The notes below the pieces were generated by a model. That model did not search any database and had not been told where the DNA came from. It saw only the letters and a list, made by a program, of their open reading frames with translations. Shown in pieces: positions 2,403 through 9,518 of a stretch of DNA of 32,000 nucleotides (positions are counted from its first letter, which is position 1; every line of letters begins with the position of its first letter). Origin of the DNA: Crocosphaera subtropica ATCC 51142 (GTDB lineage Bacteria > Cyanobacteriota > Cyanobacteriia > Cyanobacteriales > Microcystaceae); NCBI RefSeq assembly GCF_000017845.1, contig NC_010546.1:1140001-1172000 (forward strand), read 5' to 3'. The position numbers and the translations under genes were made by a program.

Positions 2403-2876
2403 ATGACAGTAGAAATCAATCAATCAATAGACACTTTATATGATCAAGATTATAATTTATGGTTAGAAAAAACCATTAAACAATTAAAATCAAGCAAGTT
2501 TTCTGAGATAGATATAGAGAACTTAATCGAGGAATTAGAAAGTATGGGAAGAAGTGATAAACGTGCGCTTAAAAGTCTTCTTACCCGACTGTTTGAACAT
2601 TTACTAAAAATAGCTTATTGGGAAACAGAAAGAGAATATAATTATCGAGGATGGAACGGAGAAATTCAAAATTTTCGCATTCAAATTAGAGAATTACTGA
2701 AAGATAGTCCTAGTCTTAAGGTTTATTTAGTGGAAATTTTTGAGGAATGTTATCAAGATGCTAGAAAAATAACTGTAAAAAAAACTGGTTTAGAATCTGA
2801 TACTTTTCCTGATGAACCTATCGCTAACTTAGAACAAGTTTTAGACGATGATTGGCTTCCTAATAAATCAAAATAA
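2403..2876 (+). CDS. DUF29 family protein (helical bundle; family expanded in cyanobacteria)
   Basis: N-terminal LYDQDYNLWLEKT, ...IDIENLIEELESMGRSDKRALKS..LL.HLLK, and C-terminal FPDEPIANLEQVLDDDWLP match the DUF29 consensus as I recall it. Confidence 0.85.
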   Translation: MTVEINQSIDTLYDQDYNLWLEKTIKQLKSSKFSEIDIENLIEELESMGRSDKRALKSLLTRLFEHLLKIAYWETEREYNYRGWNGEIQNFRIQIRELLKDSPSLKVYLVEIFEECYQDARKITVKKTGLESDTFPDEPIANLEQVLDDDWLPNKSK

Positions 2877-2888
2877 CTAACTTAATAA

Positions 2889-3368
2889 ATGCTTATGTCT
2901 ATTACATCCATTACTGAAAACCTAAAATCTTTATACGAAACTGACTATGATAAATGGGTTTTACAAACTGTTCAACGATTACAAGAAAAAAAATATGAAG
3001 CAATAGACTGGGAAAATTTAATAGATGAGGTAGCAGACTTGAGTAGAAGAGAAAGGGATAAATTAATGAGTTTGTTAACTCGTCTTTTTGAACACTTATT
3101 AAAGTTAGCTTATTGGGAATCTGAAAGAGACTATAATTATCGAGGATGGAACGGAGAAATCCAAAATTTTCGCATTCAAATAAAGAGATTACTTAGAAAA
3201 AGTCCTAGTCTTAAGGTTTATTTAGTGGAAATTTTTGAGGAATGTTATCAAGATGCTAAGAAAATTACTATCAAAAAAACTGGATTAGAATCTGATCTTT
3301 TTCCTGATAAACCTATTGCTAACTTAGAACAAGTTTTAGATGATGATTGGTTGCCAACGATTAAATAA
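2889..3368 (+). CDS. DUF29 family protein, tandem paralogue
   Basis: LYETDYDKWVLQT...IDWENLIDEVADLSRRERDKL. The 3' half is almost identical at nucleotide level to 2403-2876. Confidence 0.85.
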   Translation: MLMSITSITENLKSLYETDYDKWVLQTVQRLQEKKYEAIDWENLIDEVADLSRRERDKLMSLLTRLFEHLLKLAYWESERDYNYRGWNGEIQNFRIQIKRLLRKSPSLKVYLVEIFEECYQDAKKITIKKTGLESDLFPDKPIANLEQVLDDDWLPTIK

Positions 3369-3379
3369 TTAAGTTTATT

Positions 3380-3871
3380 ATGATTACAATTGCTAAATGG
3401 TCAGTAGAAGATTATCATAAAATCATTGAAACAGGTATTCTGAATGATCGGCCTGTTGAACTATTAGAAGGAACCATTATCGAAATGTCTCCAGAAAGTC
3501 CTTTACACCGTAAAAAATGTGATGCAGTTGCTGACTATTTACGGGACAAGTTAAAGGGTTATGCAAAGGTTTATGAAGCGCATCCTATTACCCTTTCAAC
3601 CTCGGAACCTGAACCGAATATTGCTATTGTTAGATTACCTGTTTCTTTGTATGATAATCATCATCCTTACCCCGAAGATATTTACTGGTTAATCGAAATT
3701 TCTGATAAAACTTTAACAAAAGATTTACAACAAAAACGGTTAATTTATGCTCAAGCAGGAATTAAAGAATATTGGGTGATTGATGTAGAAAAAAGAGAAT
3801 TAAAGGTTTTTAAAAACCTATTAAATAGGAATTATCAACAAGAGGAAACTTATACAAAATGGACAATATAA
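3380..3871 (+). CDS. Uma2 family (DUF820) PD-(D/E)xK putative endonuclease, probably decaying (catalytic D to N change, plus an in-frame stop before the conserved C-terminus)
   Basis: WSVEDYHKIIETGIL...VELLEGTIIEMSP, EPEPNIAIV (consensus EPEPD), and LIEISDKTL...K..YAQAGIKEYWVID. The frame continues after TAA 3869-3871 as SLAFPEIELSVEKMI* up to 3919. Confidence 0.85.
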   Translation: MITIAKWSVEDYHKIIETGILNDRPVELLEGTIIEMSPESPLHRKKCDAVADYLRDKLKGYAKVYEAHPITLSTSEPEPNIAIVRLPVSLYDNHHPYPEDIYWLIEISDKTLTKDLQQKRLIYAQAGIKEYWVIDVEKRELKVFKNLLNRNYQQEETYTKWTI

Positions 3872-3923
3872 AGTCTTGCTTTTCCTGAGATTGAATTATC
3901 TGTAGAAAAAATGATTTAATATA

Positions 3924-3949
3924 TTGTAGGGTGGGCAATACCCACCTTA
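3924..3949. repeat. Palindromic REP-like element TTGTAGGGTGGGCAATACCCACCTTA (copy B)
   Basis: Same element as 1523-1548. It lies just after the extended Uma2 frame ends at 3919. Confidence 0.7.
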
Positions 3950-3969: not shown

Positions 3970-5580
3970 ATGATAATGATTGACTTTATTACCGCGGCAT
4001 CTAAGATATTAAGTTTCATACAAGCGTTGCCTAAATTTACTAATAGTTTATATGAGCAAGGGCAAAAAAATCAAGAAATTAATAATATTTTACAGCAGTT
4101 GAATTTATCTCCTACGGAAATTCCTGATAATGTGGATACTGTTTATATTTATGCTTTGATAGATTATGGTGTATCTGAGTCTTACGCTATTTTAGAAATT
4201 CTCAGAAACAAGGAGATTAAGGATAGTTTTTGGACTGCTTATACTAATAATAATCATTTAGATTTTTTAAATAAAGTAGAAGAATTTTTAAAGCAAGAAC
4301 CCGGGTTAAAAGAAGAAATTATCAACAATAATATCGAGCTTGCAGTTGAATTAGAGAAATTTGCGGATATCTTTATTTCCTATGCAAAAAAAACGACTTC
4401 AGCTAAATTTAAAATTGATGGGGTTTATCCTGAATGGGATTTTAATGTTATTCCTAGTGAGTTTAGGGCTTTAATTGAGGAAAAAACGGGTTTATTTTGT
4501 GGTAGAAGTTTTGTTTTTCAGGAGTTTGATAAATTTATTAATAACCAATCTAAAGGATATTTTACAGTGATTGGTGATGCAGGAATGGGTAAAAGTTCTA
4601 TTGCTTCTAAGTATATTTTGGCGAAAAAGGTTCCTTGTTATTTTAATATTGCCACTGAAGGAAAAAATAAACCTGAACAGTTTCTAAATAATATTCGGCA
4701 ACAATTAATTATACGTTATAAATTACAAAATCAAGAGAATGCTGATTTACGGACTTTATTACAAAAAGCAAGTGAAAAGTTATCAGAAAAACAAAAGTTA
4801 ATTATTCTGGTTGATGCTTTGGATGAAGTGGAACAAGAAGGAAGTAGTAATCTCTTAGATTTACCTCAAAATCTGCCCAATAGGGTCTATTTTTTGCTGA
4901 CAAGACGACCTTATAATTCTCAAACTCAACGATTAACAACGTCTCCTGATACGACCTATGAAACGTTAGATTTAAAAGAGGAAAAATATCAGAAACTTAA
5001 TGAACAAGATGTTAAACAATATATTGGTTTATTTTTACAAAATGATCAACAGTATAAGGATAAATTGCAGAAATGGCTTAAAGATAGGAAGATTGATGAA
5101 TTGACTTTTATTGAAGAAGTAGCTAAGAAAAGTGAAAATAATTTTATGTATTTACGCTATGTTTTACCTTGGATAGCTGAGGATAAATATAGTGATTTAA
5201 CGTTACAAGGTTTACCTACAGGTTTACAAGAATATTATGAACAGCATTGGCAACAAATGAACATGGAGGAAGAAGCAAACGAAACTAAGGTTAAAATCTT
5301 CTATATGTTAGTTAAACGAGGTGATGAGATTTCCTCAGAGATGATTGCTAATATTTTAGATTTAGATGAATATGATGTGAGTTCGGTGTTGGAAAATAAG
5401 GATTGGTTTGAATATATAACCATAAGGAAAGATAAAACTGAGGATAAAATTTACTATCGTATTTATCATAAAAGTTTCTTAGAGTTTCTTCAAGATAAGC
5501 GTAAATTGAGTAAGGGACGGAGGTTATTTAAAGAAGTTAACGATAAAATGGCTGAGTATATGTTAAAGGAAATGAATTAA
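3970..5580 (+). CDS. NACHT-like STAND P-loop NTPase with a ~170-aa helical N-terminal domain of unknown function
   Basis: Walker A GDAGMGKS (4573-4596), Walker B LVDALDE (4810-4827), LLTRRP (NACHT TSRP-like motif), and a C-terminal winged-helix-like YYRIYHKSFLEFL. Confidence 0.8.
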   Translation: MIMIDFITAASKILSFIQALPKFTNSLYEQGQKNQEINNILQQLNLSPTEIPDNVDTVYIYALIDYGVSESYAILEILRNKEIKDSFWTAYTNNNHLDFLNKVEEFLKQEPGLKEEIINNNIELAVELEKFADIFISYAKKTTSAKFKIDGVYPEWDFNVIPSEFRALIEEKTGLFCGRSFVFQEFDKFINNQSKGYFTVIGDAGMGKSSIASKYILAKKVPCYFNIATEGKNKPEQFLNNIRQQLIIRYKLQNQENADLRTLLQKASEKLSEKQKLIILVDALDEVEQEGSSNLLDLPQNLPNRVYFLLTRRPYNSQTQRLTTSPDTTYETLDLKEEKYQKLNEQDVKQYIGLFLQNDQQYKDKLQKWLKDRKIDELTFIEEVAKKSENNFMYLRYVLPWIAEDKYSDLTLQGLPTGLQEYYEQHWQQMNMEEEANETKVKIFYMLVKRGDEISSEMIANILDLDEYDVSSVLENKDWFEYITIRKDKTEDKIYYRIYHKSFLEFLQDKRKLSKGRRLFKEVNDKMAEYMLKEMN

Positions 5581-5594
5581 ATTCTCCAAACCTC

Positions 5595-5619
5595 GTAGGG
5601 TTTTAATACTATTAAACCC
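5595..5619. repeat. Palindromic element GTAGGGTTTTAATACTATTAAACCC (type 2, copy 1)
   Basis: Stem GGGTTT(T)AAT/ATTAAACCC. A near-identical copy lies at 7994-8018. Confidence 0.65.
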
Positions 5620-5721: not shown

Positions 5722-5783
5722 CTCTAACAACACCAAACCCCCTGAATTAAATTGTATGTTAACCAAGGAGAAGACATGAAGTA

Positions 5784-7997
5784 ATGGGACAAATAGCGAC
5801 TCACTTAGCTGGAAAAAATGCAGAATTTCAACGCTTTTTTTTGGGTCAGTTTCCAGAAGTTCAACTGGAAGCTGGAAACCTGGAACAATATTATGAAAAA
5901 TTAACTAATTTTGATTTCATTTCCCTCAAAATCCATCATCCTAAGTTTGGCGTAGAAGCATTAATTAGGGATTATGATTTAATTGATGAAGTAACAGAAC
6001 AAACACTAAACTCCGAACAACTGAAAACCCTCAAATTTATTCAACGAACCTTACAATTATCCTCCCATATTTTAAATGAAGACCCCACCCAGTTAGTAGG
6101 ACAATTATGGGGAAGATTACAGGGGTTTGACTATCCAGACATTAAGACATTATTGAAAGAGGCAGAAGATAGCCACCGTAACAAACTTTGGTTACGTCCC
6201 CTAACTGCTAGTTTAACCACTCCTGATAGTCCTCTCATTCGTACCTTGACCGGTCATAACAACATGGTAAATGCAGTATCTGTCACCCCAGATGGGTTAA
6301 AAGCAGTTTCTGCTTCTGCTGACAAAACCCTGAAATTGTGGGATTTAACCACAGGCAAAGAACTGTTAACTTTAACCGGTCATAACGACTGGGTATATGA
6401 AGTGTGTGTCACCCCAGATGGTTTAAAAGCCATTTCTACTTCGTCTGACAAAACTCTAAAATTGTGGGATTTAACCACAGGCAAAGAACTGTTGACCTTC
6501 ACCGGTCATAACAACTGGGTAAATGCAGTATATGTCACCCCAGATGGCTTAAAAGCCGTTTCTACTTCATCTGACAAAACCCTAAAATTGTGGGATTTAA
6601 CCACAGGTAAAGAACTTTCTACTTTTAGGGGTCATAACGACATGGTATATGGTGTATCTATTACGCCAGATGGGTTAAAAGTGGTTTCTGCTTCTCGTGA
6701 CAAAACTCTAAAATTGTGGGATTTAGCCACAGGCAAAGAACTTTCTACTTTTAGGGGTCATAACGACATAGTATATGGTGTATCTATTACGCCAGATGGG
6801 TTAAAAGTGGTTTCTGCTTCTCGTGACAAAACTCTAAAATTGTGGGATTTAGCCACAGGCAAAGAACTTTCTACTTTTAGGGGTCATAACGACTGGATAT
6901 ATGCAGTGTCTGTCACCCCAGATGGCTTAAAAGCAGTGTCTGCTTCTCGTGACAAAACCCTGAAATTGTGGGATTTAACCACAGGCAAAGAACTTTCTAC
7001 TTTTAGGGGTCATAACGCCTGGATATATGCAGTGTCTGTCACCCCAGATGGCTTAAAAGCAGTGTCTGCTTCTCGTGATCACACCTTAAAGCTATGGGAT
7101 TTAGCCACAGGAAAAGAACTTTTTACCTTTAGAAGTCATAACGACCGAGTATATGCAGTGTCTGTCACCCCAGATGGCTTAAAAGCGGTTTCTGCTTCTC
7201 GTGATCACACCTTAAAGCTATGGGATTTGCCTACAGGAAAAAAACTTTCGAGTTTAAGGGGTCATAACGACCGAGTATATGCAGTGTGTGTCACCCCAGA
7301 TGGCTTAAAAGCAGTGTCTGCTTCCCGTGACCAAACCCTAAAATTGTGGGATTTAACCACAGGCAAAGAACTTTCTACCTTTAGAAGTCATAACCAATGG
7401 GAATATGCGGTTGTTATTACCCCTGATGGATTAAAAGCGGTTTCTGCTTCTCGTGATCACACCTTAAAGCTATGGGATTTGTCTACAGGAAAAAAACTTT
7501 CGAGTTTAAGGGGTCATAATGACCGAGTATGTGCGGTATCCATAACCTCAGATGGGTTAAAAGTGGTTTCTGCTTCTCGTGATCACACCTTGAAGTTATG
7601 GGATTTAGCTATAGGAAGAGAACTTTATACCTTCGAGGGTCATAACGATATGATATATGATGTATCCATAACCCCAGATGGCTTAAAAGCGGTGTCTGCT
7701 TCACTTGACGAAACCCTGAAACTGTGGGATTTAGGCACAGGGAGAGAATTATGGACTTTCACCGGTCATAACGCCTCGGTAAATGCAGTATCAGTGACCC
7801 CAGATGGGTTAAAAGCGGTGTCTGCTTCACTTGACGAAACCCTGAAAGTGTGGGATTTAGGCACAGGGGAAGAACTTGTTACCTTTAGTGGGGATAGTCC
7901 AATGATTTGCTGTAGCGTGTCTCCTGATGGTTTAACTGTTGTTGCTGGAGATAGTTCAGGAAAGGTTCATTTTTTGCGTCTAGAAGAAAGTTTGTAG
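5784..7997 (+). CDS. WD40-repeat protein: ~155-aa helical linker domain plus 14 WD40 repeats (two predicted 7-bladed propellers)
   Basis: 13 units of GHN.....V.(V/I)TPDGLK.VSAS.D.TLKLWDL.TGKEL plus one degenerate unit. The N-terminal part (..YYEKLTNFDFISLKI..GVEALIRDYDL..WLRPLTASLTTP) is the kind of linker seen in NACHT-WD40 fusions. SD AAGGAG at 5765-5770. Confidence 0.95.
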   Translation: MGQIATHLAGKNAEFQRFFLGQFPEVQLEAGNLEQYYEKLTNFDFISLKIHHPKFGVEALIRDYDLIDEVTEQTLNSEQLKTLKFIQRTLQLSSHILNEDPTQLVGQLWGRLQGFDYPDIKTLLKEAEDSHRNKLWLRPLTASLTTPDSPLIRTLTGHNNMVNAVSVTPDGLKAVSASADKTLKLWDLTTGKELLTLTGHNDWVYEVCVTPDGLKAISTSSDKTLKLWDLTTGKELLTFTGHNNWVNAVYVTPDGLKAVSTSSDKTLKLWDLTTGKELSTFRGHNDMVYGVSITPDGLKVVSASRDKTLKLWDLATGKELSTFRGHNDIVYGVSITPDGLKVVSASRDKTLKLWDLATGKELSTFRGHNDWIYAVSVTPDGLKAVSASRDKTLKLWDLTTGKELSTFRGHNAWIYAVSVTPDGLKAVSASRDHTLKLWDLATGKELFTFRSHNDRVYAVSVTPDGLKAVSASRDHTLKLWDLPTGKKLSSLRGHNDRVYAVCVTPDGLKAVSASRDQTLKLWDLTTGKELSTFRSHNQWEYAVVITPDGLKAVSASRDHTLKLWDLSTGKKLSSLRGHNDRVCAVSITSDGLKVVSASRDHTLKLWDLAIGRELYTFEGHNDMIYDVSITPDGLKAVSASLDETLKLWDLGTGRELWTFTGHNASVNAVSVTPDGLKAVSASLDETLKVWDLGTGEELVTFSGDSPMICCSVSPDGLTVVAGDSSGKVHFLRLEESL
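6252..7994 (+). repeat. Coding tandem repeat, 126-bp period x 14 (WD40 units)
   Basis: Unit starts fall at 6252+126k. Units 4 (6630-6755) and 5 (6756-6881) differ by one nucleotide (ATG vs ATA). Confidence 0.95.
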
Positions 7998-8018
7998 GGG
8001 TTTAATACTATTAAACCC
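7994..8018. repeat. Palindromic element GTAGGGGTTTAATACTATTAAACCC (type 2, copy 2); its TAG is the WD40 stop codon
   Basis: The stop TAG at 7995-7997 lies inside the repeat. Confidence 0.65.
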
Positions 8019-8053: not shown

Positions 8054-8347
8054 ATGAATATCAATCAATTAATTCAGGAAAAACGAGAAGAAATTATTAT
8101 GATTGCGGCTAAACACGGCGCGAGTAATCTGCGTATTTTTGGTTCCGTTGCCAGAGGTGAAGCAGACGAAAACAGCGACCTTGATTTATTAATTGATTAT
8201 GACAGTAAAAAAAGGAGTCCTTGGTTTCCCTTGAGATTAATCCGAGAGTTAGAAACATTGTTAGGTTGTAAAGTTGATATTGTTACCGAACAAGGATTAA
8301 AAGATAGAATTAAAGAGCGTGTGTTACAAGAAGCTATGAGGTTATAA
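8054..8347 (+). CDS. Minimal nucleotidyltransferase (MNT, COG1669-type, the antitoxin half of HepT/MNT modules), orphan
   Basis: FGSVARGEADENSDLDLLIDY (GS...D.D NTase motif), ...CKVDIVTEQGL. No DUF86/HepT ORF lies on either side. Confidence 0.85.
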   Translation: MNINQLIQEKREEIIMIAAKHGASNLRIFGSVARGEADENSDLDLLIDYDSKKRSPWFPLRLIRELETLLGCKVDIVTEQGLKDRIKERVLQEAMRL

Positions 8348-8435: not shown

Positions 8436-9518
8436 ATGTCTCAAATTAAAACTATCAAAAATACCAGAGGACACCCCGAATATTTACAAACTATTATTAC
8501 AGAAAAAAGCCGTGATTTTGTCGGGCGTGATTTTGTGTTTTCTACTATTAATAACTTTATCAATAATTACGATAAAGGTTATTTTACTCTTATTGGTGAA
8601 CCAGGAAGCGGAAAAAGTGCGATTCTTGCTCAATATTTCAACCAAAATAATAATGTTGTTTACTACAATTTTGATCCCCTCCAACCCCCTTTATTAAGGG
8701 GGGAGAATTGGGAAAACTCCTTAGAAAAGGAGAGAGATTATGAAACTTTCTTAAAAATTGTCAATCATCAATTAATCGATATCTTATCGAGTTTAGAAAC
8801 AAATCAACTTGAGAATGAAGTAGAAAATGATAATAACTTGTTCTCATTATTACTACAAAAAATTAGTGATAAATTACCCCAAAACCAACCCTTAATTATC
8901 ATTATTGATGGTTGTCATAAACTTGACTTAAACCAATATAAAAGAGGCGCAAACCTTCTTTATTTACCCCGTTATCTCCCCAAAAATGTCTATTTAATCC
9001 TTAGTCGTCGTCCTTTTCCTAACAATAAATCAAATTTATTAATAGAAACCCCATCACAAATCTTAAACTTATCCAACTATCCCGAAGAAAATAAAAAAGA
9101 CATCCAAACTTATCTAAAAACCTATGGAAAAAATCAAGAAATATTAAAAAAACTTGACAAAAACGAAACCAATTTTATGTATGTCAGTGAAATTATAAAA
9201 CAGCCTAATTTACCCCCTGAAACATTACCAGAAAGCTTAGAAAACTATTATCAAGAACATTGGAATGATATGAATAAAACAATTGAAAAAAAACCCGAAC
9301 TTAGCTTACAAATTTTACAATGTTTATTACAAGAATACTCATTAATTTCCCTAGAAACCATTGCCGAAAACTTAGACCAAGATGAATATGATATTGAGAT
9401 AATATTAGAAGACTGGCGAGAATTTTCACACCTAGAAACTAGAGAAAATATCCCATATTATCAATTTTATCATTCTAGTTTTCATAATTGGTTAAAAGCA
9501 AAAGTCAGTGAAATATAA
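8436..9518 (+). CDS. NACHT-like P-loop NTPase, a paralogue of 3970-5580 lacking the N-terminal domain, with a degenerate Walker B
   Basis: FVGRDFVFSTINNFINNYDKGYFTLIGEPGSGKS aligns with FCGRSFVFQEFDKFINNQSKGYFTVIGDAGMGKS. Walker A at 8595-8618. The Walker B region reads IIIIDGCHKLD. ILSRRP, NFMY, LENYYQEHW and YYQFYHSSFHNWL are all shared with the paralogue. Confidence 0.75.
   Translation: MSQIKTIKNTRGHPEYLQTIITEKSRDFVGRDFVFSTINNFINNYDKGYFTLIGEPGSGKSAILAQYFNQNNNVVYYNFDPLQPPLLRGENWENSLEKERDYETFLKIVNHQLIDILSSLETNQLENEVENDNNLFSLLLQKISDKLPQNQPLIIIIDGCHKLDLNQYKRGANLLYLPRYLPKNVYLILSRRPFPNNKSNLLIETPSQILNLSNYPEENKKDIQTYLKTYGKNQEILKKLDKNETNFMYVSEIIKQPNLPPETLPESLENYYQEHWNDMNKTIEKKPELSLQILQCLLQEYSLISLETIAENLDQDEYDIEIILEDWREFSHLETRENIPYYQFYHSSFHNWLKAKVSEI
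8676..8720. repeat. Palindromic repeat-like segment embedded in frame in the NTPase paralogue
   Basis: CCCCTCCAACCCCCTTTATTAAGGGGGGAGAATTGGGAAAACTCC with hairpin CCCCCTT-TATT-AAGGGGG (8685-8702). It is translated as PLQPPLLRGENWENS, a block absent from the paralogue at the aligned position. Confidence 0.5.

Follow-up and report, generated by a model that had tools for sequence, protein, structure and literature searches.

In the fungal NWD and HNWD receptors (HET-E, HET-D and HET-R of Podospora anserina), a NACHT-type ATPase and highly conserved WD40 repeats are parts of one polypeptide with a HET or other death domain, and strong positive selection acts on codons 7, 9, 25 and 27 of the repeats, which lie at the top of the propeller on either side of the conserved codons 8 and 26 (PMC1805685, PMC2873952). 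In prokaryotes, highly repetitive WD40 repeats were described as highly conserved except at predicted top-face hotspots and as enriched in cyanobacteria (Hu et al. 2017, PMC5587647), and the parallel with the repeats of fungal NOD-like receptors (NLRs) has already been published (bioRxiv 10.1101/2020.01.06.895854). WD40 Apaf-1-like sensors were reported among bacterial signal transduction ATPases with numerous domains (STANDs; PMC13581612), and cyanobacteria are rich in NACHT genes (Kibby et al., bioRxiv 10.1101/2022.07.19.500537). Their STAND-linked propellers include the WRAP branch, where turnover is rapid and disrupted copies occur (Pereira & Lupas 2022, PMC9218822). We analysed a stretch of 32,000 nucleotides (the window) from Crocosphaera subtropica ATCC 51142, a model unicellular nitrogen-fixing cyanobacterium (contig NC_010546.1, positions 1,140,001 to 1,172,000). 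Its open reading frame ORF2 (5784..7997, plus strand, 737 amino acids) encodes a WD40 array and belongs, together with ORF1 and ORF4, to a three-gene cassette. We predict, with a probability of about 0.62, that a split STAND system resembling NLRs and Apaf-1 has ORF2 as its free-standing sensor subunit. The locus follows the known pattern of a conserved scaffold with variable top-face loops, and the split architecture is its sole mildly new point.

The array is preceded by a helical domain of 156 residues (5784..6251, plus strand) that resembles helical domain 2 (HD2) of Apaf-1, as judged from Pfam APAF1_C (3e-4, under the curated cut-off), from alignment with Apaf-1 and from a structure model. 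The Apaf-1 apoptosome chains 3J2T and 5JUY aligned with ORF2 in Foldseek at a template modelling (TM) score of 0.76 (query-normalised) over approximately 790 columns, spanning HD2 and both propellers, and by sequence they align from ORF2 residue 76-80, that is, from inside HD2. Thus Apaf-1 and ORF2 are arranged alike, with two propellers behind a helical domain. In Apaf-1, however, an AP-ATPase (NB-ARC) and a CARD domain belong to the same chain and the propellers consist of 7 and 8 diverged blades, whereas the ATPase of the cassette carries a NACHT signature on a separate protein and the ORF2 blades are 75% identical.

The best structure match of ORF2 was the WRAP propeller 2YMU (sequence 2.3e-154; Foldseek E 2.6e-70), which comes from Npun_R6612 of Nostoc punctiforme (Dunin-Horkawicz et al. 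2014; Pereira & Lupas 2022, PMC9218822). Like ORF2, this protein is a cyanobacterial array of 14 blades that form two 7-bladed propellers; like the present locus, it is STAND-associated and has a second STAND ATPase gene as partner. In contrast, WRAP is fused to its own STAND ATPase and has a TIR partner, whereas ORF2 is free-standing, lacks an ATPase and has an NNH5-NACHT and a bare NACHT-like protein as neighbours. Neither a TIR nor a caspase domain was found in the neighbours of ORF2 with Pfam and PADLOC. WRAP blades comprise 41 residues and are almost identical, without synonymous differences (PMC9218822), whereas the ORF2 units comprise 42 residues with 80% nucleotide identity and a synonymous divergence (dS) of 0.59-0.62. 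Recent en-bloc amplification, and ATPase fusion with a TIR or caspase partner, which characterise the WRAP branch, are therefore both absent from ORF2.

ORF1 (3970..5580, plus strand, 536 amino acids; exactly identical to ACB50498.1) comprises an NNH5 helical domain, a NACHT-type STAND nucleoside triphosphatase (NTPase) and a winged-helix region, as assigned by Pfam and motif analysis. Pfam matched NNH5 at 7.8e-33 and, more weakly, AAA_22, NPHP3_N, AAA_16 and NACHT, the last with a score of 24.1, just under its cut-off of 26.7. The Walker B motif LVDALDEV (DALDE) fits the signature D[GAS]hDE of the NACHT clade described by Kibby et al. (bioRxiv 10.1101/2022.07.19.500537), who also use the NNH naming; the name NNH5 is not used in PMC8195603. 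Antiviral STANDs (Avs, bNACHT) likewise combine a NACHT module with an NNH-type N-terminal domain, and the NTPase region of ORF1 partially matched PADLOC Avs1b (7.5e-14). They differ from the cassette in that its sensor is a separate gene and it has no recognised enzymatic effector. Among 1356 ORF1 homologues, the best 120 all measured 462-595 amino acids and none of these 120 carried WD40 repeats.

The third gene, ORF4 (8436..9518, plus strand, 360 amino acids), encodes a NACHT-type NTPase, recognised by its alignment with ORF1 and by Pfam AAA_16. It is a paralogue of ORF1 without NNH5 (32% identity to ORF1 residues 162-510, E 4e-46). The acidic pair of its Walker B motif has been substituted: the motif reads DGCHK in the window, DGCHR in C. 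watsonii WH 8501 (L001, 12651-13751) and DDFHK in a Crocosphaera metagenome-assembled genome (MAG; L003, 9724-10806), so that ORF4 may bind nucleotide without hydrolysing it. NCBIfam gave nothing for ORF1, the N-terminal domain of ORF2 or ORF4. Three other Crocosphaera genomes and Anabaena UHCC 0253 (L009) contain the genes in the same order, ORF1-ORF2-ORF4, which demonstrates that the three-gene cassette is conserved across cyanobacteria, and the genomic context of the array is that of an NLR-like STAND system.

The modules that an NLR carries in one chain, in the order effector, nucleotide-binding oligomerisation domain (NOD) and repeats, are here divided between genes, and this split is kept in relatives. 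Between the ORF1 stop codon and ORF2 lie 203 bp, and ORF2 has its own start codon and ribosome-binding site, a conserved Shine-Dalgarno-like AAGGAG at 5765..5770 (plus strand). The block AAGGAGAAGACATGAA..AATGGG was kept in the window, in a further Crocosphaera genome (L002) and in L003, and Anabaena UHCC 0253 has AAAGGAGA ahead of ATGGG. This conserved Shine-Dalgarno block indicates that ORF2 is translated on its own. The ORF2 start MGxIA was likewise retained from Crocosphaera to Nostoc, Anabaena, Coleofasciculus and Hydrocoleum. Since both start and ribosome-binding site are conserved, we rejected the possibility that ORF1 and ORF2 are halves of a gene split by pseudogenisation. In a search with the ORF2 N-terminal domain, which matched 1428 representative proteins, approximately 90% of the best 150 carried it N-terminally. 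Among 240 proteins analysed for its position, the HD2-like domain was N-terminal in 137, internal in 97, which are classical fused STAND-HD2-WD40 proteins, and part of an ORF4-like fusion in 6 (P0326, P0366, P0413, P0335, P0305 and P0241). In these six, HD2-WD40 is fused to an ORF4-like NTPase at its C-terminus, which places the sensor ahead of the ATPase and so inverts the order that is usual in NLRs.

If the cassette arose by the break-up of an ancestral NACHT-HD2-WD40 gene, ORF2 might be a decaying remnant whose unused array drifts in copy number. The fused STAND-HD2-WD40 proteins occur in more distant relatives, Anabaena PCC 7108 contains a decayed cassette (a 92-residue NNH5 fragment, a two-blade WD protein and a 91-residue ATPase fragment), C. 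watsonii WH 8501 has only 3 blades and an altered C-terminus, and disrupted propellers are common in the WRAP branch (PMC9218822). In the window, however, ORF1, ORF2 and ORF4 are all intact. ORF2 has exactly 14 blades, the number of two complete propellers, and is under strong purifying selection, with a ratio of nonsynonymous to synonymous divergence (omega) of 0.26 overall and 0.09-0.12 in the scaffold. Moreover, the split with its own ribosome-binding site and MGxIA start occurs in Chroococcales and Nostocales and is the majority state. We consider decay very unlikely.

For the predicted sensor, a mechanism can be proposed. HD2 would dock on the winged-helix end of a NACHT partner, and the propellers would bind a ligand, plausibly a protein of a phage or of another foreign source. 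Binding would release nucleotide-dependent oligomerisation and activate the NNH5 domain. A more far-reaching version, which we put forward tentatively and hold to be rather doubtful, is a conserved three-part split NLR. Here the free HD2 plus double-propeller sensor would serve both the NNH5-NACHT protein and the Walker-B-degenerate NACHT paralogue, and the lineages in which the sensor is fused before the second ATPase would contain a permuted NLR. A gene of its own for the fast-turnover array would let recombination alter the number of blades and their top-face residues without endangering the reading frame of the ATPase. No description of the three-gene split or of the sensor-ATPase fusions was found in the literature searched, a search that was non-exhaustive, and the accessible part of Hu et al. 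2017 (PMC5587647), whose statement is made at catalogue level, does not discuss the window locus, the cassette or the split architecture. Fungal NWD receptors resemble the cassette in combining a NACHT-type ATPase with highly conserved WD40 repeats, but differ in being single polypeptides with a HET or other death domain, whereas the modules here are divided between genes of a cyanobacterial host and the N-terminus of the partner is NNH5.

To characterise the array itself, we cut ORF2 into repeat units. Tandem Repeats Finder detected a single array at 6252-7888 with a period of 126, 13.0 copies, 83% matches and a score of 1755. All thirteen 126-bp units named by an initial reading of the window, made from its letters alone (the sequence-only reading), proved to be in frame, with 42 codons each from 6252 to 7889. 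Units 1-7 form propeller 1 (6252..7133, plus strand; Tandem Repeats Finder, unit cutting and a model with four strands per unit), and units 8-13 form propeller 2 (7134..7889, plus strand; same evidence) together with a degenerate closing unit 14 (7890-7994), which ends ORF2. This closing blade, GDSPMICCSVSPDGLTVVAGDSSGKVHFLRLEESL, and the stop codon occupy 7890..7997 (plus strand, from unit cutting). ORF2 residues 662-731 matched Pfam Beta-prop_TEP1_C, and the closing blade is kept in orthologues. PF00400 matched ORF2 at E 4.3e-129 in 13 stretches, and the units read GH...D...WD.

The sequence-only reading had called these units near-identical at nucleotide level, which does not hold. Pairs differ at 1-41 of 126 nucleotides (mean 25.4, or 80% identity), and 61 of the 126 columns vary among the 13 units. 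Its details on single units were correct: units 4 and 5 are one base apart (ATG to ATA, M to I at unit codon 5), and units 8 and 10 have the block DHTLKLWDL(P/S)TGKKLSSLR in common. Units 6 and 9 are 9 nucleotides apart. What it had observed of the array is therefore partly confirmed, being real but overstated. Amino-acid identity between blades averaged 75% (median 76%, range 60-98%), which places ORF2 above the threshold of >60% blade identity for highly repetitive propellers (Pereira & Lupas 2022, PMC9218822).

For mapping we used an AlphaFold2 model of ORF2 built on a 40-sequence alignment (predicted local distance difference test (pLDDT) 93.7, predicted TM score (pTM) 0.89); a single-sequence model (pLDDT 53.6) was set aside. 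The model shows eight helices (residues 1-130) followed by 14 four-stranded blades split 7 + 7. At residues 441-455 the confidence dips and strand D is missing, which marks the boundary of the two propellers (blades 1-7 and 8-14). With the G of GH counted as position 1, each unit runs from the D-A loop (1-5) through strand A (6-11), the A-B loop (12-16), strand B (17-22), the B-C turn (23-25), strand C (26-31) and the C-D loop (32-36) to strand D (37-42). In the established WD40 topology, the D-A loop and the B-C turn form the top face; the A-B and C-D loops are on the bottom face. Variable sites were placed by strand or loop identity and this standard topology, not by measured solvent exposure.

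Amino-acid differences are concentrated, as had been claimed from the letters: entropy exceeds 1 bit only at positions 4, 5, 6, 7, 8, 10, 23, 25, 33, 39 and 42, and 19 of the 42 positions are invariant. Between units, identity is 37% at the 11 variable positions versus 89% at the other 31. The further claim that the variable sites map to the top face holds for 4, 5, 7, 23 and 25, which belong to the D-A loop and the B-C turn, but fails for 33 in the C-D bottom loop, 39 in the outer strand D and 42 at the end of strand D. At 4, 5, 7, 23 and 25 taken together, all 13 units have distinct top-face signatures.

The fungal codons 7, 9, 25 and 27 would correspond to unit positions 5, 7, 23 and 25, an offset of 2 that we adopted because the pairs flank the conserved V and D in both. 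Variability at the equivalents of these codons, on either side of the conserved V and D, is a feature that ORF2 shares with the fungal repeats (PMC1805685, PMC2873952). Defined a priori, the four positions had an entropy sum of 6.50 bits, a value reached by 168 of 111,930 four-position sets (exact P=0.0015), so that the enrichment of variability at fungal-equivalent sites was borne out. It extends beyond the window: in 39 other family members with at least 5 full units, within-protein entropy peaked at 23, 5, 4, 25 and 7, and the entropy profile correlated with that of the window array (Spearman 0.61). This profile was obtained with a hidden Markov model from the 13 units, which undercounts blades in distant relatives and was used for position-wise entropy, not for blade counts. 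The consensus unit of 40 proteins reads GHxxxVxAVAVTPDGxRAVSASxDxTLKVWDLxTGxELxTLx, and the hotspot positions are among its undetermined columns.

We then compared codon substitution between scaffold and hotspots. Over all 42 codons, pairwise omega was 0.26 (nonsynonymous divergence (dN) 0.15, dS 0.59), and nonsynonymous and synonymous events numbered 52 and 46 (ratio 0.35). The 31 scaffold codons gave a pairwise omega of 0.085 and 13 versus 35 events (ratio 0.12), and the 11 variable codons 1.13 and 39 versus 11 events (ratio 1.06). At the four a-priori codons (5, 7, 23 and 25), 13 nonsynonymous and 2 synonymous events were counted (ratio 1.38); they are distinct from the remaining codons (Fisher p=0.005), and measured against the array-wide synonymous rate their ratio is approximately 0.9. 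Pairwise omega at 4, 5, 7, 23 and 25 was 1.98, a value that rests on few synonymous sites. Hence the scaffold of all blades is under strong purifying selection, hotspots evolve at five to ten times the rate of the scaffold, and hotspot codons change at about the neutral rate, as a result of which every blade has a different top-face signature.

The sequence-only reading had gone further and proposed a recognition surface of the NWD type. This proposal is partly supported: the site pattern and the NLR-like context agree with it, whereas diversifying selection and array-wide homogenisation were not borne out by the codon data. Several observations also weigh against a sensor role for ORF2. At the a-priori hotspots omega is not above 1 (binomial p=0.50, with 13 units giving little power), unlike in fungal NWD receptors, where positive selection was demonstrated statistically. 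Positions off the top face (33, 39 and 42) rank 2nd, 3rd and 7th in entropy. PADLOC returned no full-length match to a curated defence model, only the match to the Avs1b NTPase region and matches at repeat level, and the putative physical association of ORF1, ORF2 and ORF4 is deduced from synteny and gene fusions only. We know of no activity of NNH5. Finally, no part of a WD40 blade is, to our knowledge, under less constraint than its loop positions, and the pattern alone is therefore no proof of a receptor.

These points lead to a different explanation, in which ORF2 is an ordinary amplified WD40 scaffold that accumulates differences at its least constrained sites, has neither selection for diversity nor a receptor role, and serves as an assembly platform for the ATPases. 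Hotspot omega values of 1.06-1.38 by events and of ~0.9 against array-wide dS, none significantly above 1, are what it would lead one to expect, as is the presence of a bottom-loop (33) and an outer-strand position (39) among the variable sites. P0151, a family member with fully diverged blades, would fit a cycle of amplification and later differentiation (PMC9218822). On the other hand, the scaffold is held far more tightly (omega ~0.1, 89% identity) than upkeep of the fold needs, and with a dS of 0.6 the blades do not count as young. Hotspots and fungal NWD specificity sites coincide (P=0.0015), the gene lies in a conserved STAND cassette, and in overall architecture ORF2 matches the part of Apaf-1 that senses the ligand. 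We therefore regard a pure scaffold as unlikely and retain the sensor subunit as the preferred interpretation.

Conversion had also been suggested as the force that homogenises the array. As the main cause this was not supported by synonymous divergence: dS at scaffold codons between units of the window array was 0.62, equal to the 0.62 between window units and those of the Crocosphaera MAG (L003), and above the 0.35-0.45 of the orthologous N-terminal domain between the window and relatives. Because unit dS exceeds that of the orthologous flank, the amino-acid uniformity of the blades reflects purifying selection, and the array as a whole is neither young nor kept uniform by conversion. Inside L003, dS between units was 0.23. 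In fungi, paralogous loci exchange repeats, and repeat-induced point mutation (RIP) may alter them. Synonymous divergence between the ORF2 blades is high.

Duplication or conversion did act locally and recently on some blocks, though not array-wide. Linked synonymous changes across codons 24-29 are common to units 7, 8, 10 and 11, and mosaic tracts were significant for the unit pairs 6-7 and 10-11 (permutation p<0.0005) and 12-13 (p=0.0015). Mosaic blocks thus reached significance for 2-3 unit pairs, and nearest-neighbour units lay mostly within the same genome; within-array dS, however, equalled between-species dS. Unequal recombination or conversion appears to add and remove blades and to swap parts of them, and blade number and order differ between relatives. 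Repeat shuffling and changes in repeat number are known from fungal NWD genes (PMC2873952).

Targeted mutagenesis, for instance by a diversity-generating retroelement, could in principle write the hotspot variation in place of ordinary mutation and recombination. Such retroelements are reported to diversify putative conflict-system sensors in multicellular cyanobacteria (PMC10907252). In our case, no reverse transcriptase was detected among the window ORFs scanned (16 of 26) and no template repeat was found. At hotspot codons, changes were counted at every consensus base, namely at G (37), C (24), T (21) and A (20), without an adenine bias, and variants travel between blades as blocks with linked synonymous changes, the signature of duplication or conversion. 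On these grounds we rejected the retroelement, which we consider extremely improbable.

The sequence-only reading had expected repeat number to be unstable between strains; we compared blade numbers between species and genera, where they do differ. The window array has 14 blades, the Crocosphaera MAG (L003) approximately 10 with one unit disrupted, P0321 has 7, C. watsonii WH 8501 (L001, a complete genome) 3, Anabaena PCC 7108 (L006) 2 and Crinalium P0296 approximately 18. In L003 (7820-9595, residues ~436-471), an insertion of 16-21 residues with the core LPxxLTRI(L/F) lies between blades. P0296 carries the same insertion at residues ~450-475, 520-545, 705-730 and 775-800, and it is absent from the window array. 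It may represent a linker, or an artefact of the assembly. In C. watsonii the C-terminus of the 3-blade protein is replaced, and the replacement (L001 12514-12575) is encoded by a 7-bp tandem repeat, ATCAGTT, in 8.9 copies.

The region also defeats short-read assembly, as had been anticipated: L002 stops inside the array. An exact match to ORF1 occurs only in the genome of C. subtropica itself and in two short Logan contigs, both of which end 188 amino acids into ORF2. Anabaena UHCC 0253 has a run of approximately 800 Ns inside the array. The exact 737-residue ORF2 was not found in the protein collection, and all 28 database matches of the N-terminal domain were only 141-273 amino acids long, at least 11 of them annotated as 'partial'.

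Among the highly repetitive WD40 sensors of NLR-like systems in cyanobacteria, the locus is a further example that is complete and well resolved, and it puts numbers on the evolution of such an array, with a scaffold under purifying selection, loop hotspots near neutrality, local conversion and differing blade counts. The conserved division into ATPase and sensor genes, together with the sensor-ATPase fusions, suggests partners that can be tested. It is also a warning that genes of this kind are systematically truncated in short-read assemblies and protein databases.

Between the genes of the cassette we observed further elements. ORF1 and ORF2 are each followed, after their stop codons, by a 21-nucleotide palindrome, GGKTTTAATAsTATTAAACCC. 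The first copy, GGTTTTAATACTATTAAACCC, lies just past the ORF1 stop (5599..5619), with a near-identical copy at the same place in L002 and L003, and the second, GGGTTTAATACTATTAAACCC, found by sequence search, directly follows the ORF2 stop (7998..8018). Four strand-matches occur in the window and none is expected by chance. Lacking a T-run, the palindrome does not qualify as a classical terminator and might form an RNA hairpin or mark a site of processing. Promoter and terminator scans yielded chance-level results only. A two-codon upstream ORF (ATG AAG TAA, 5776-5786) overlaps the ORF2 start as TAATG, an arrangement that is not kept in L002 and L003. Between ORF2 and ORF4, a gene (8054-8347) encodes an MntA-like nucleotidyltransferase of 97 amino acids. 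It is missing from that gap in L001 and L003, and the 89 nucleotides downstream of it are too few for a HEPN partner.

Outside the cassette, a second palindromic repeat, ATTGTAGGGTGGGCAwTrCCCACCTTA, occurs in two intergenic copies, one after an RF3-like gene (1522-1548) and one just upstream of ORF1 (3923-3949). Two tandem DUF29 genes (2403-3871) have a 287-nucleotide stretch at 87% identity in common and are followed by a gene for a putative Uma2-family endonuclease, directly upstream of the cassette. In the two Anabaena genomes, rbcL-rbcX-rbcS lies beside the cassette, which is intact in UHCC 0253 (L009) and present as decayed fragments in PCC 7108 (L006).

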